Virus record (IMG/VR): IMGVR_UViG_2579778842_000003
Strand: one strand, 5' to 3'
Source: a virus
Lineage: Duplodnaviria; Heunggongvirae; Uroviricota; Caudoviricetes
Length of the DNA: 64,000 bases
In this document: piece after piece, positions 1 to 54,713 of the stretch
Layout of the letters: every line of letters begins with the position of its first letter
Position numbering within the stretch: position 1 is the stretch's first letter
The notes under the pieces: model-generated
Seen by the model: the letters and a program-made list of their open reading frames with translations, nothing else
What the model was told of the DNA's origin: nothing
The model's database searches: none
Program-made: the position numbers and the translations under genes

Positions 1-227
1 CCCCAGAAGTGCCGGATCCGAAAAGAAGAACTAACTCGTTGTGGAGAATAACAAAAATGGTCATCTGGAGCTTACAGGTGGCCATTCGTGGGACAGTATC
101 CCTGACAGCCTACAAAACGCAATTGAAGAACGCGAGGCATCGTCTTAACGAGGCACCGAGGCGTCGCATTCTTCAGATGGTTCAACCCTTAAGTTAGCGC
201 TTATGGGATCACTCCCCGCCAGGTCTC

Positions 228-383
228 TTACCTTTCAGATTCGTAGGCTGTGAAGACAGTGACCTCCGTCTGGCCGGTTCGGATTCGTACCTCGCAGAGG
301 TCTTTCCTCGTTACCAGTGCCGTCACAATGACGGTTAGACAGATGACGATCAGAGCGATTAACATCGCTTTTTGCTGCTTCAT
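228..383 (-). CDS. hok: Hok/Gef-family type I toxin (51 aa, below the ORF-track cutoff)
   Basis: Manual translation of minus strand gives MKQQKAMLIALIVICLTVIVTALVTRKDLCEVRIRTGQTEVTVFTAYESER, which closely resembles Gef/HokC as recalled; single TM helix plus conserved RKDLCEV motif. Confidence 0.7.
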   Translation of the reverse strand: MKQQKAMLIALIVICLTVIVTALVTRKDLCEVRIRTGQTEVTVFTAYESER

Positions 384-441
384 AGCCTGCTTCTCCTTGA
401 CCTTTTGGTCGGTAAGAGGCTAATCTACGTATGCTAAGCAT
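235..441 (-). CDS. mok: Mok-like overlapping leader ORF (translational coupler for hok)
   Basis: 68-aa ORF in a different frame that starts upstream of hok and overlaps almost all of it, the classic hok/mok arrangement. Confidence 0.4.
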   Translation of the reverse strand: MLSIRRLASYRPKGQGEAGYEAAKSDVNRSDRHLSNRHCDGTGNEERPLRGTNPNRPDGGHCLHSLRI

Positions 442-520
442 AGATATGGCCTCAGATTAATGTTAAGCGTCTTGCAGGACGCGTAATGTTATCTGGGGCT
501 TTCTTCTATCTGCTTTTCGG
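400..520 (+). ncRNA. sok: Predicted Sok-like antisense RNA region (boundaries approximate)
   Basis: Inferred from hok/mok architecture only: an antisense RNA would be expected opposite the mok start and leader. No promoter was mapped with confidence. Confidence 0.2.
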
Positions 521-564
521 GTCATGCCTGAAGCAGATAGCCTCAAGCACCCGCAACGATTGTA

Positions 565-810
565 TCAATGTCTGGCTTTTTTTCTATAGAAATCACCTGG
601 AAGGGTGAATATCCACATCAGAAGAAATGTTGCAGCAAACATGATCCCTAATGGCCAGACCGCGCCAAAGAAAATCCATACTAAGATCTCCTCTGCTCGT
701 TCTTTGCGGTAGATATCGACAAGCATTTTTCGGCTGATCATGTATACACAGAAGCCAATACAAACATATCCTGCAAAAGCGATCGCTAACTGTAAAAAAT
801 CAGATTGCAT
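565..810 (-). CDS. Small two-helix membrane protein (about 81 aa from an internal ATG with a GAGG RBS)
   Basis: Hydrophobic ORF downstream of repL; C1-operator-like half-site (gattagagcaat) about 40 nt upstream. Confidence 0.4.
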   Translation of the reverse strand: MQSDFLQLAIAFAGYVCIGFCVYMISRKMLVDIYRKERAEEILVWIFFGAVWPLGIMFAATFLLMWIFTLPGDFYRKKARH

Positions 811-860
811 CTCCGACCTCAAACTGAAAACGCCAGGTGACTCCAGATTAGAGCAATCTA

Positions 861-2622: not shown

Positions 2623-2699
2623 TTTTTCTGACTCGATCCAGATCGGGTTGGACGATCTGCTCAGAAACCTGCCAGTTAGCTGGCAGGTTTTTTCTTTTG

Positions 2700-3734
2700 T
2701 TAACCTATTGCTACTGGTTTTAACAAACCAGCATCAAGTAGCTTGCGAGTTAACCACTGCTGGCCTTTACCCGTTAATTGGGGCGTCAGCCGTATCTGGT
2801 AGCCATTTTCATCATCCAGCACCACTTCTTTCACCGTGAAATACCCGGCGTTAATGTACTGCTGGCGCGGTACGTTTTTGCGCGCACCAAAAGCCATGAG
2901 AATGCCGTTCTGGCGCAACCATGAGAAAAGGGCGTTTTGCTTAAGTCCAACGACCTTTGCAAAGTCCCCGATCAGGATTCCATTAGCCGCTGATACCCGG
3001 TCGGCAAAATCGACTTTAGGGGCTGCGGCCACCAGCTGTTGTTCCAACTGCATTTTCTGTTCTGCCAACTCGGCAGCCAGGCGTAGAGCTTCTGGTAATG
3101 TTTGGGGGATCGATGGGGTAGGGGAGTTTGCCTGCTGCAATTCTTCCAGTTTGTCGATCAGCGAACGGCGGACCGCTTTTGACTCGCGCGCGGCAACTCG
3201 CAGGGCTTGTTTGTAGGTCATGGTTATAATATCTATTTCTGCGCCGTTTTTTTGACCTACGAAAATTTCGTAGGTTTCTCCTTCAAGCTCATCCTTAACT
3301 CTGGCAATGAAATCATTGTTGCGAACTGGTTTTTCGCTACATAATTTCCGTGCCTCATTGACCATCTTCAACAATGTTTGGCTGTCGATTGTGTCTCCGG
3401 TGTTGGGGATGACATTCAGGGCTGGTGCTGGCGTAGCTGAAGCAACAGGTGCTGGTTTTTCAACATTTAAATTATTACCGGTCATTCTATGTGCCTCCTT
3501 TCTCATTTCTGCTGCCACTGTTGCGTAACGTAGACGTCCTTGTTCAATCAAATAATCCCTGATCTCGGCTATCAGTAGCCTGTTGATCACAGCCTTATCT
3601 GTTCGGGTATAAAAACGTCTGGTTATCATGAAATAGTTAGCAATTGCGCCGGGGATCTCCCGTGTCGGCATACAGGCAGTATGCAAGGCGATCGCTTCGG
3701 CTATTTCATTACGGGTGACGAGAGGTGTTTTCAT
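2700..3734 (-). CDS. ant1: Antirepressor Ant1 (Ant2 would be an in-frame internal start)
   Basis: 344 aa; antirepressor-like C-terminal domain; sits downstream of icd and the c4 region as in P1 immI. Confidence 0.8.
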   Translation of the reverse strand: MKTPLVTRNEIAEAIALHTACMPTREIPGAIANYFMITRRFYTRTDKAVINRLLIAEIRDYLIEQGRLRYATVAAEMRKEAHRMTGNNLNVEKPAPVASATPAPALNVIPNTGDTIDSQTLLKMVNEARKLCSEKPVRNNDFIARVKDELEGETYEIFVGQKNGAEIDIITMTYKQALRVAARESKAVRRSLIDKLEELQQANSPTPSIPQTLPEALRLAAELAEQKMQLEQQLVAAAPKVDFADRVSAANGILIGDFAKVVGLKQNALFSWLRQNGILMAFGARKNVPRQQYINAGYFTVKEVVLDDENGYQIRLTPQLTGKGQQWLTRKLLDAGLLKPVAIG

Positions 3735-53855: not shown

Positions 53856-54056
53856 TTATCTGCTGCCCGGCATTCTCTGTTTAAGCGCAACCATTTCCTG
53901 ACGGCATAACACAGCAATAGCGGTCCTGACTCCAATTTGCTTACCAACCAGGTATTGCTTTACCTTGCGGCGACTCACGCCATCAAGAAGCATCTTTAAC
54001 GCTTCACGGGACAATTTGTTGTATTTGCGTGCCATTAATCTACTCCGCAGAACCAT
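53856..54056 (-). CDS. Small basic protein downstream of doc (pdcA-like)
   Basis: 66-aa ORF; overlaps the doc 3' end, so the true start may be internal. Confidence 0.35.
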
Positions 54057-54420
54057 ACAATCTACGTAACGTGTCGGCGACAGAAGATACAGATATCTCT
54101 CCGGTCGCAGCCCCTACGGTAAGGTCTGCCAGTTCAGGTGAATCAAATACCTGCACCCCGTTACGGCGTAGAAATAACAGCGCACTGTTTAGCGCGGTAC
54201 GCTTATTGGCATCATTGAATATATGCCCTCTCGCTGTAGCCACCAGGTAGGTGGCGGAGACTTCGAAAAGGTCGGTGATCTCTTCGTAGGCAACTCTGGC
54301 CTGAACTCTCCCGATAATGGCCTCTGCCCTACCAGGATCTGACATTCCCGGCAGGCCGCCGTAGCGGTTTATATTCGCATCATGAAGCGCAATAAGTTCT
54401 TCCGGTGATATATGCCTCAT
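54040..54420 (-). CDS. doc: Doc toxin (Fic-fold kinase)
   Basis: 126 aa, [25 protein letters not shown]...; start overlaps the phd stop. Confidence 0.92.
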
Positions 54421-54641
54421 TATCGGTTAACCAGTTCCTTGTTGGTGGAGTCCAGGGTGTCAAACAGGGATGCAAATTCAGCATCCAGCGCCGCTTTTTT
54501 GTAGGCTTCGAAAGTAGCCTTGCTGACAATTACTGCTGGCTCACGGCCTCTGCGGGTGATTTCAACCTCTTCCCCGGCTTCAACATTGTTGAGCACTTCA
54601 GAAAGGTTGCCGCGCGCGGTACGGAAGTTAATGGATTGCAT
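54420..54641 (-). CDS. phd: Phd antitoxin
   Basis: 73 aa from [32 protein letters not shown]... Confidence 0.92.
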
Positions 54642-54713
54642 AAACACCTCGTGTACTCGTTATGTGTACACAATTATAAACTTCACAGGCATAAAGCACC
54701 AGCACTTTGCAGC

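Follow-up and report, generated by a model that had tools for sequence, protein, structure and literature searches.

An IS186-interrupted hok/mok/sok cassette beside the lytic replicon of a P1-like phage-plasmid is most likely a crippled killing module

Does a P1-like phage-plasmid that already carries phd-doc also carry a second, unrelated addiction module in working order? The question is raised by a locus near the left end of the DNA examined here (the window; 64,000 nucleotides of IMG/VR record IMGVR_UViG_2579778842_000003), where a sequence-only reading had recognized a type I toxin-antitoxin cassette of the hok/mok/sok type. The window derives from a P1-like (IncY) phage-plasmid, in which repL (861-1706, 98% identical to P1 repL), kilA and ant follow the hok locus at 98% identity to P1, so that hok indeed adjoins the lytic replicon, as that reading had proposed. 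Its further statement that phd-doc is also present was borne out by Pfam, with phd at 54420-54647 (minus strand; PhdYeFM, 3.1e-13) and doc at 54040-54420 (minus strand; Fic/DOC, 2e-09). Homology to canonical P1 (NC_005856) begins only at position 847 of the window, and the canonical order rlfA-rlfB-pmgF between repL and bplB is not found in the window, which carries an 81-aa open reading frame and hok/sok instead. Canonical P1 therefore lacks hok at this position, in agreement with the earlier reading, the spot being occupied by pmgF-rlfB-rlfA. As described below, positions 205-586 represent a hok/mok/sok cassette of the HokD/HokW type, located in the variable slot between bplB and repL, that has been interrupted by IS186 and is most likely crippled as a killing module.

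The toxin gene was located in the open reading frame list at 228-383 on the minus strand, and encodes a HokD/HokW-like protein of 51 aa with the translation MKQQKAMLIALIVICLTVIVTALVTRKDLCEVRIRTGQTEVTVFTAYESER. Its membership in the Hok/Gef family is far beyond chance; the protein matches Pfam HOK_GEF (PF01848) with an E value of 2.4e-22 (78.7 bits versus a cutoff of 22) and PHROG 251 ("MokW-like host killing") at 4.9e-32, is identical to WP_001313475.1, named HokD in RefSeq, and shares 41 of 50 residues with HokC of Escherichia coli K-12. The NCBIfam Hok models score it below their curated cutoffs (49.5 versus 73). Peptides of the HokD cluster have been found to be toxic in experiments (bioRxiv 10.1101/2025.08.07.668861). 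The gene is overlapped along nearly its entire length by an out-of-frame mok reading frame of 68 aa (235-441, minus strand), which is matched by PHROG 37205 at 2.7e-19 and is preceded by a Shine-Dalgarno sequence of its own (GAGG, 450-453, minus strand), 8 nt upstream of the mok ATG. This ATG (441) lines up with the annotated mokC start in the alignment with K-12, and hok translation would be coupled to that of mok. The coordinates given for both frames in the sequence-only reading were exact, and its assignment of the locus to the hok/mok/sok class is supported by Rfam, Pfam and the alignment with K-12.

Upstream of the two frames, the 5' leader of the hok mRNA (378-552, minus strand), with tac, ucb, the Sok-target hairpin and the mok initiation region, was delineated by Rfam, RNA folding and alignment with hokC and hokE. 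An Rfam scan, which the earlier reading had proposed, matched family RF01794 ("sok") over the full length of the model, from 552 to 378 on the minus strand, with 113.9 bits (gathering score, 59; E=1.8e-26). As this model spans the sequence from GGGUGCUUGAGG to the hok AUG, it describes in practice the leader of the sense hok mRNA and not the antisense RNA. Three further Rfam matches fell far under their gathering scores and were dismissed as noise or plain terminator hairpins: a second "sok" match (495-643, plus strand; 20.3 bits, E=0.12), ceN48 (25.7 bits) and ctRNA_p42d at 2663-2700 (21.2 bits). Within the leader, tac is placed at 541-552 and ucb at about 495-501 (both minus strand) by the folds and the hokC/hokE alignment. 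A consensus scan detected a putative sigma-70-like promoter at 559-586 (minus strand, reading 586 to 559), consisting of TAGAAA, a 16-nt spacer and TG-n-TACAAT; its -10 element (TACAAT) is aligned with TATAAT of K-12 hokC, and transcription from it would begin at about G552, where the RF01794 model also begins. Both the promoter activity and the RNA ends of the locus are thus predictions. Counted along the leader from the predicted start at 552, the mok ATG (441) is reached after 111 nt and the hok ATG (383) after 169 nt, which makes the earlier figure of about 120 nt roughly right.

Aligning the locus with the annotated K-12 hokC/mokC/sokC and hokE/sokE loci revealed homology of the Sok region to both sokC and sokE, and alignment to the annotated 59-nt sokC predicts a Sok antisense RNA of about 77 nt at about 433-509 on the plus strand. 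The predicted RNA would have a 5' single-stranded tail lying over the mok start, a long hairpin (448-500) bearing an 18-nt insertion at its tip relative to K-12 SokC, and a U-rich tail, CUUUCUUCUAU. The fold is highly stable, with an energy of -29.9 kcal/mol (z=-5.4) that was equaled by none of 200 shuffled sequences. A putative Sok promoter was read from the sequence at 397-426 (plus strand), with TTGACC as the -35 element (397-402), an 18-nt spacer and TAATCT as the -10 element (421-426), at the position homologous to the region upstream of annotated sokC; it lies below the threshold of the promoter consensus scan and, since the scan did not call it, is proposed on the basis of homology.

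The 3' side of the locus is where it departs from an intact cassette. Positions 1-204 of the window (plus strand) form the right end of IS186/IS421 (IS4 family) and match the final 204 bp of K-12 IS186A at 100% identity. The transposase reading frame stops at about position 51 and the terminal inverted repeat (...CAACCCTTAAGTTAGCGCTTAT) at 204, and the remainder of the element falls outside the window. The box drawn by the sequence-only reading (200-565) begins at this junction, and the IS186 sequence to its left had gone unnoticed. As the window itself begins inside IS186, the far side of the element is deduced from identical public records, in particular the plasmid NZ_CP091040.1, which is identical to the window across all 4,900 bases compared. 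In this plasmid (locus L004), IS186 is present as a full copy of 1,338 bp (L004 2867-4204) that is 99.9% identical to K-12 IS186A and has the terminal repeats ATAAGCGCTAACTTAAGGGTTG...CAACCCTTAAGTTAGCGCTTAT, and the same 12-mer, GGGATCACTCCC, is found at both ends of the element. The 12-bp target-site duplication is therefore at 205-216 of the window, with its second copy past the opposite end of the IS and not contained in the window. Consistent with this junction, all matches to phages and prophages end at position 205, and in plasmid matches the left end of the window coincides with a feature annotated as "IS4-like element IS421 family transposase."

The insertion point is 23 nt 3' of the hok stop codon, and IS186 sits in the loop of a GC-rich stem-loop that directly follows this codon. 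When the IS and one copy of the repeat were removed, the empty site obtained (...GAGTGGCGGGGATCACTCCCCGCCAGGTCTCTTACC...) restored a perfect GGCGGGGA-GUGA-UCCCCGCC stem-loop right after the hok stop, and this rebuilt site was found at 100% identity in 10 plasmids, including NZ_CP010146.1. The target, GGGG-ATCACT-CCCC, fits the IS186 preference for GGGG(N6/N7)CCCC that is quoted second-hand in PMC6925257. What remains of the hok 3' untranslated region in the window (205-227, minus strand) is, according to the folds, the 5' arm and loop of the stem-loop, GGCGGGGA-GUGA-UCCC, with the 3' arm cut by the IS after 4 nt and four stem pairs left. Thus the intact GC-rich terminal stem-loop 3' of hok is absent from the window copy, and it folds fully as GGCGGGGA/UCCCCGCC in the intact alleles, that is, in MH422554 (locus L001) and in the reconstructed allele of NZ_CP091040.1. 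The consequence of damage to this element can be gauged from hok of plasmid R1, in which 19 of 22 loss-of-function substitutions in the 3' untranslated region abolish a CG pair in the stem at the end of the processed mRNA, and in which the processed mRNA vanishes in those mutants (PMC9841398).

A second control element, fbi, is displaced altogether. The tac-fbi pair belongs to the classical model of R1 hok (PMC9841398), and in the locus examined here fbi (GGGTGCATTGAGG) reads CCUCAAUGCACCC on the mRNA, which is the complement of the mRNA 5' end GGGUGCUUGAGG (tac). In the uninterrupted MH422554, fbi is found about 40 nt past the position of the junction (L001 2965-2977), and in NZ_CP091040.1 it lies beyond the IS (L004 2819-2831). 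The native fbi is thus absent from the window, 1.3 kb away past the 1,338-bp IS186. Of the two elements for which the sequence-only reading had proposed RNA folding, tac is accordingly present in the leader, and fbi lies outside the window. In both intact alleles nt 1-12 of the transcript pair with nt 373-385 in the minimum-energy structure, with a tac-fbi pairing probability of 0.99. For the interrupted transcript the outcome varies with the 3' end picked inside the IS: with ends at 100, 30 and 1 the probability of tac pairing with the 3' region is 0.00-0.02, with ends at 100, 52, 30 and 1 the partner of tac is either a local sequence or ucb, and with the short ends at 190 and 150 the probability is 0.33 and 0.65. 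The predicted tac-fbi pairing is lost in the interrupted copy in these models. The known open tac-ucb form was not recovered by ViennaRNA, not even from a processed-like intact RNA, and the program left the mok Shine-Dalgarno paired in every construct; we have therefore restricted the folding to the tac-fbi question and draw no conclusions from it on translatability.

The partner of tac in the transcript ending at 150 is a cryptic IS sequence, CCUCGGUGCCUC, at 151-162 of the window. We considered it as an IS-borne substitute for fbi and rejected it as a chance match; its duplex with tac is predicted at -16.8 kcal/mol versus -21.6 kcal/mol for native tac-fbi, a value that 9% of dinucleotide shuffles of the IS end equal. 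In longer transcripts an IS hairpin sequesters the sequence, and it is missing when the IS has the other orientation. As to where transcription would stop, a terminator scan of the minus strand across the IS part (1-204) found none. A weak hairpin with a U-run near 55-87 in the IS is a candidate terminator, and would fit the 3' end reported for gef (about 200 nt past the stop; PMC3562002).

Taking the R1 mechanism as a guide, we propose the following for the intact form of the locus. An mRNA of about 390 nt would begin at about 552, and its 5' tac would pair with the 3' fbi, leaving the mRNA untranslated and blind to Sok. Slow trimming of the 3' end, up to the GC-rich stem-loop after the hok stop, would open the mok ribosome site, to which the unstable Sok RNA, present in excess, would bind and thereby lead to decay of the mRNA. 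When the element is lost, Sok would be gone first and Hok would kill the cell, so that the intact form, by analogy, would serve for killing or abortive infection once the element has gone. The transcript of the window copy must run into IS186. It would supply no stable inert mRNA pool, and the mRNA would either be captured by Sok without delay or decay from a 3' end left without protection. The toxin gene would then be silent and post-segregational killing lost or greatly weakened, as has been proposed for K-12 gef/hokC; maintenance of the plasmid would rest on phd-doc and partition, with the hok module adding little or nothing. Because IS186 splits the 3' stem-loop and separates fbi from the mRNA, we regard the module as probably disabled, a loss of function argued from the R1 mechanism and the gef precedent. 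The suggestion that the element possesses two addiction modules is therefore unsupported as far as a second working one is concerned.

The locus can be compared with several known systems. K-12 hokC (gef)/mokC/sokC (sof) belongs to the same family and has the same architecture, comprising tac, mok, hok and, at the corresponding place, the antisense Sok that is predicted for the window. IS186A interrupts its homologous 3' hairpin at the identical nucleotide and shares both orientation and 12-bp duplication with the window copy, the junction reading ...GGCGGGGAGTGATCCC|ATAAGCGC.... In K-12 hokE, the homologous nucleotide is the insertion point of IS186B, which faces the other way. Unlike the window locus, hokC is chromosomal, its toxin is identical at 41 of 50 residues and its SokC measures 59 nt, while the Sok hairpin of the phage-plasmid is longer by 18 nt. 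PMC3562002 describes the IS186 that follows gef as a presumed disruption of fbi and mRNA processing, and reports that gef with this IS is still transcribed, its transcript ending inside the IS and being regulated by the antisense sof. With hok/sok (parB) of R1, the window locus shares all elements of the RF01794 leader, the overlapping mok, a predicted antisense RNA directed at mok initiation and a GC-rich 3' stem-loop, and the tac-fbi fold-back of R1 is kept by the intact sister alleles. R1 hok/sok, in contrast, is uninterrupted and stabilizes plasmids experimentally, and its toxin falls in the R1 Hok cluster, whereas that of the window is of the HokD/HokW type; the window copy is without fbi and half of the 3' stem. 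As the window copy lacks these two elements, its nearest match is the IS186-inactivated gef/hokC of K-12 and not parB of R1.

Two further groups of loci are related to the window copy. The hokD (relF)/hokW-type loci of lambdoid prophages (Rac, mEp460, Tritos and others) display 88-92% nucleotide identity over exactly 205-564 of the window, have the same toxin type and are annotated as hok/mok/MokW/HokD. They differ in residing on integrated prophages and in being uninterrupted where examined, the similarity ending at the IS junction of the window. The uninterrupted P1-like loci (MH422554, NZ_CP010146.1 and 248 further PLSDB plasmids) are likewise located between bplB and repL, are 98-100% identical and are followed downstream by the same 81-aa open reading frame, but keep the complete stem-loop and fbi, both of which the window copy lacks; MH422554 also has a terminator shared with bplB that is not in the window copy.

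This position is not new. The same hok locus is found between bplB and repL in MH422554 ("Punavirus P1"), vB_EcoM-Ro157c2YLVW and phi456, which match from position 205 onward at 98-99%, and in PLSDB plasmids, 442 of which carry this hok allele; they are mostly P1-like/IncY, mostly non-mobilizable and about 90-100 kb. The sequence, including the IS junction, is already public, and RefSeq labels the allele in these plasmids "type I toxin-antitoxin system toxin HokD," so that the novelty implied by the sequence-only reading does not hold. Our literature searches on hok in P1-like phage-plasmids returned no specific discussion of it. A survey has reported an enrichment of hok in prophages and large plasmids (bioRxiv 10.1101/2025.08.07.668861); hok/sok cassettes in phages, prophages and large plasmids are already well documented, and the locus has little discovery value in this respect. 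Among the 442 carriers, 249 plasmids are intact across the junction, 161 have IS186 in the orientation of the window, and 34 (for example, NZ_LR130553.1) have it in the opposite orientation. The interrupted share thus amounts to about 44% of the plasmid copies (161 + 34 = 195).

Might the module work fully in spite of the IS, as a second addiction or abortive-infection system alongside phd-doc, with an IS-ended transcript that is stable enough or is closed by the tac complement within the IS? Neither the hok and mok frames nor the two putative promoters or the predicted Sok gene are damaged, and the interrupted allele is common (195 plasmids) and persists without further decay, so that it is not demonstrably dead. 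The cryptic sequence at 151-162 could pair with tac at about the native distance, with a probability of about 0.65-0.7 if the RNA ends at 150, and gef with the same IS is reported to be transcribed and antisense regulated (PMC3562002), which suggests that some toxin potential remains. Against this possibility, the substitute duplex is weaker than the native one and no stronger than in 9% of the shuffles, longer 3' ends bury it in the IS hairpin while tac pairs locally, and insertions in the opposite orientation (the 34 plasmids and hokE) offer a match of only -13.1 kcal/mol. The insertion also divides the 3' stem that R1 hok requires in intact form (PMC9841398), and the chromosomal hokA, hokB and hokC loci, even when intact, gave no killing after plasmid loss, as relayed in bioRxiv 10.1101/2025.08.07.668861, citing Pedersen and Gerdes (1999). 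We consider a fully working module unlikely.

The opposite extreme, that the locus is a chance or decayed resemblance, a pseudogene remnant without toxin, antisense RNA or regulation, is highly improbable. The Sok promoter missed by the consensus scan, the NCBIfam scores under the curated cutoffs and the disruption by the IS are in keeping with a remnant, but the full-length Pfam, PHROG and Rfam matches are far above threshold, the identity to uninterrupted alleles is 98-100% with changes that are synonymous or confined to loops, and HokD-cluster peptides have the experimental toxicity noted above. Nor is it readily credible that the junction was imported by recombination with the chromosomal hokC::IS186 rather than by an independent insertion. 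The duplication GGGATCACTCCC, the orientation and the nucleotide of insertion are identical to those of K-12 hokC; yet the sequence just outside the hairpin is plasmid specific on both sides and not hokC-like, the exact empty site is present in sister plasmids, and other plasmids have the opposite orientation or a different duplication allele, as expected of a GGGG-N6/7-CCCC hot spot in the terms relayed by PMC6925257.

For the annotation of such elements, the gene-level label "hokD present" overstates function. Nearly half of the copies, that of the window among them, have lost fbi and the integrity of the 3' stem, so any tally of addiction modules on phage-plasmids should consider the RNA elements as well as the toxin reading frame. 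The repeated IS186 hits on a single hairpin provide a clean natural case of target-site-driven, recurrent inactivation of a toxin-antitoxin system. We further offer, as a tentative and rather unlikely generalization, that every hok mRNA of this type needs a conserved 3' GGGG-N6-CCCC stem-loop, which is at the same time an IS186 landing pad, and that hok loci are in this way repeatedly and independently disarmed (hokC and hokE of K-12; the P1-like plasmids). Under this proposal, the frequency of the interrupted allele could reflect selection against an active hok/sok where phd-doc serves, or an IS-fused variant that is still functional, and not hot-spot mutation and hitchhiking alone. In the plasmids, the occurrence of both orientations shows that IS186 inserted independently at least twice. 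A different duplication allele, GGGATCTCTCCC, is found in a different flanking context in NZ_CP021842.1 and NZ_AP027681.1, which suggests a third.

The 3' hairpin of hok is a hot spot for IS186, matching GGGG-N6-CCCC. The same hairpin nucleotide holds the element in the hokC (L005 1507-1560) and hokE (L006 1480-1540) loci of E. coli K-12, at window 205-227 and at the junctions of loci L004-L010. Among the 442 PLSDB plasmids that harbor this hok allele, 195 carry IS186 at this nucleotide, in one orientation in 161 and in the other in 34, and two duplication alleles occur at the interrupted plasmid hok sites. In the L010 region of plasmid NZ_AP025221.1, the IS186 flanks (611-655 and 1993-2037) lack a direct repeat, with gggatctctccc on one side and gggagtgatccc, the window-type loop in reverse complement, on the other. 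These flanking sequences suggest recombination or inversion between IS186 copies of differing orientation.

The IS186 end also harbors a stretch (window 151-162; minus-strand RNA CCUCGGUGCCUC) that is complementary to tac, the 5' element of hok mRNA, at nearly the native distance of fbi, the 3' element that pairs with tac. We judged this complementarity to be due to chance, as the duplex is weaker than that of native fbi (-16.8 versus -21.6 kcal/mol) and 9% of shuffles equal it. Within hok itself, the codon of the C-terminal tyrosine, Tyr47 (window 240-246, minus strand), lies in GCC-UAC-GAA. This UACG context resembles that of the TadA A-to-I editing sites reported in hokB, hokC, hokD and hokE, where editing recodes Tyr to Cys.

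The gap between bplB and repL is a variable cargo slot. In window-type plasmids, a MazG-like gene (L004 1531-2523 in NZ_CP091040.1, outside the window and to the left of IS186) separates bplB from the detached 3' fragment of hok, whereas in MH422554, with an uninterrupted hok, bplB is followed directly by hok, and in P1 the gap contains pmgF-rlfB-rlfA. Between repL and hok, an 81-aa hydrophobic ORF (565-810, minus strand, with a longer frame to 891) matches PHROG 3772 (1.2e-52), a family of unknown function, with no match in Pfam or NCBIfam; it accompanies hok in P1-like elements and is absent from lambdoid hok loci. Window 841-857 (minus strand), ATTGCTCTAAT followed by CTGGAG, retains the first 11 nt of the P1 C1 operator Orlf/Op55 (ATTGCTCTAATTATAAC), within which the P1 homology breakpoint falls. 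Because this remnant sits just upstream of the 81-aa ORF, C1 might still control that ORF and, possibly, any read-through from it into hok.

The ant1-like ORF (2700-3734, minus strand) has at its 3' end a hairpin with a T-run (2663-2700, plus strand), downstream of the start of the kilA-like ORF. This hairpin is probably just a terminator; its match to Rfam ctRNA_p42d is weak (21.2 bits versus 50).
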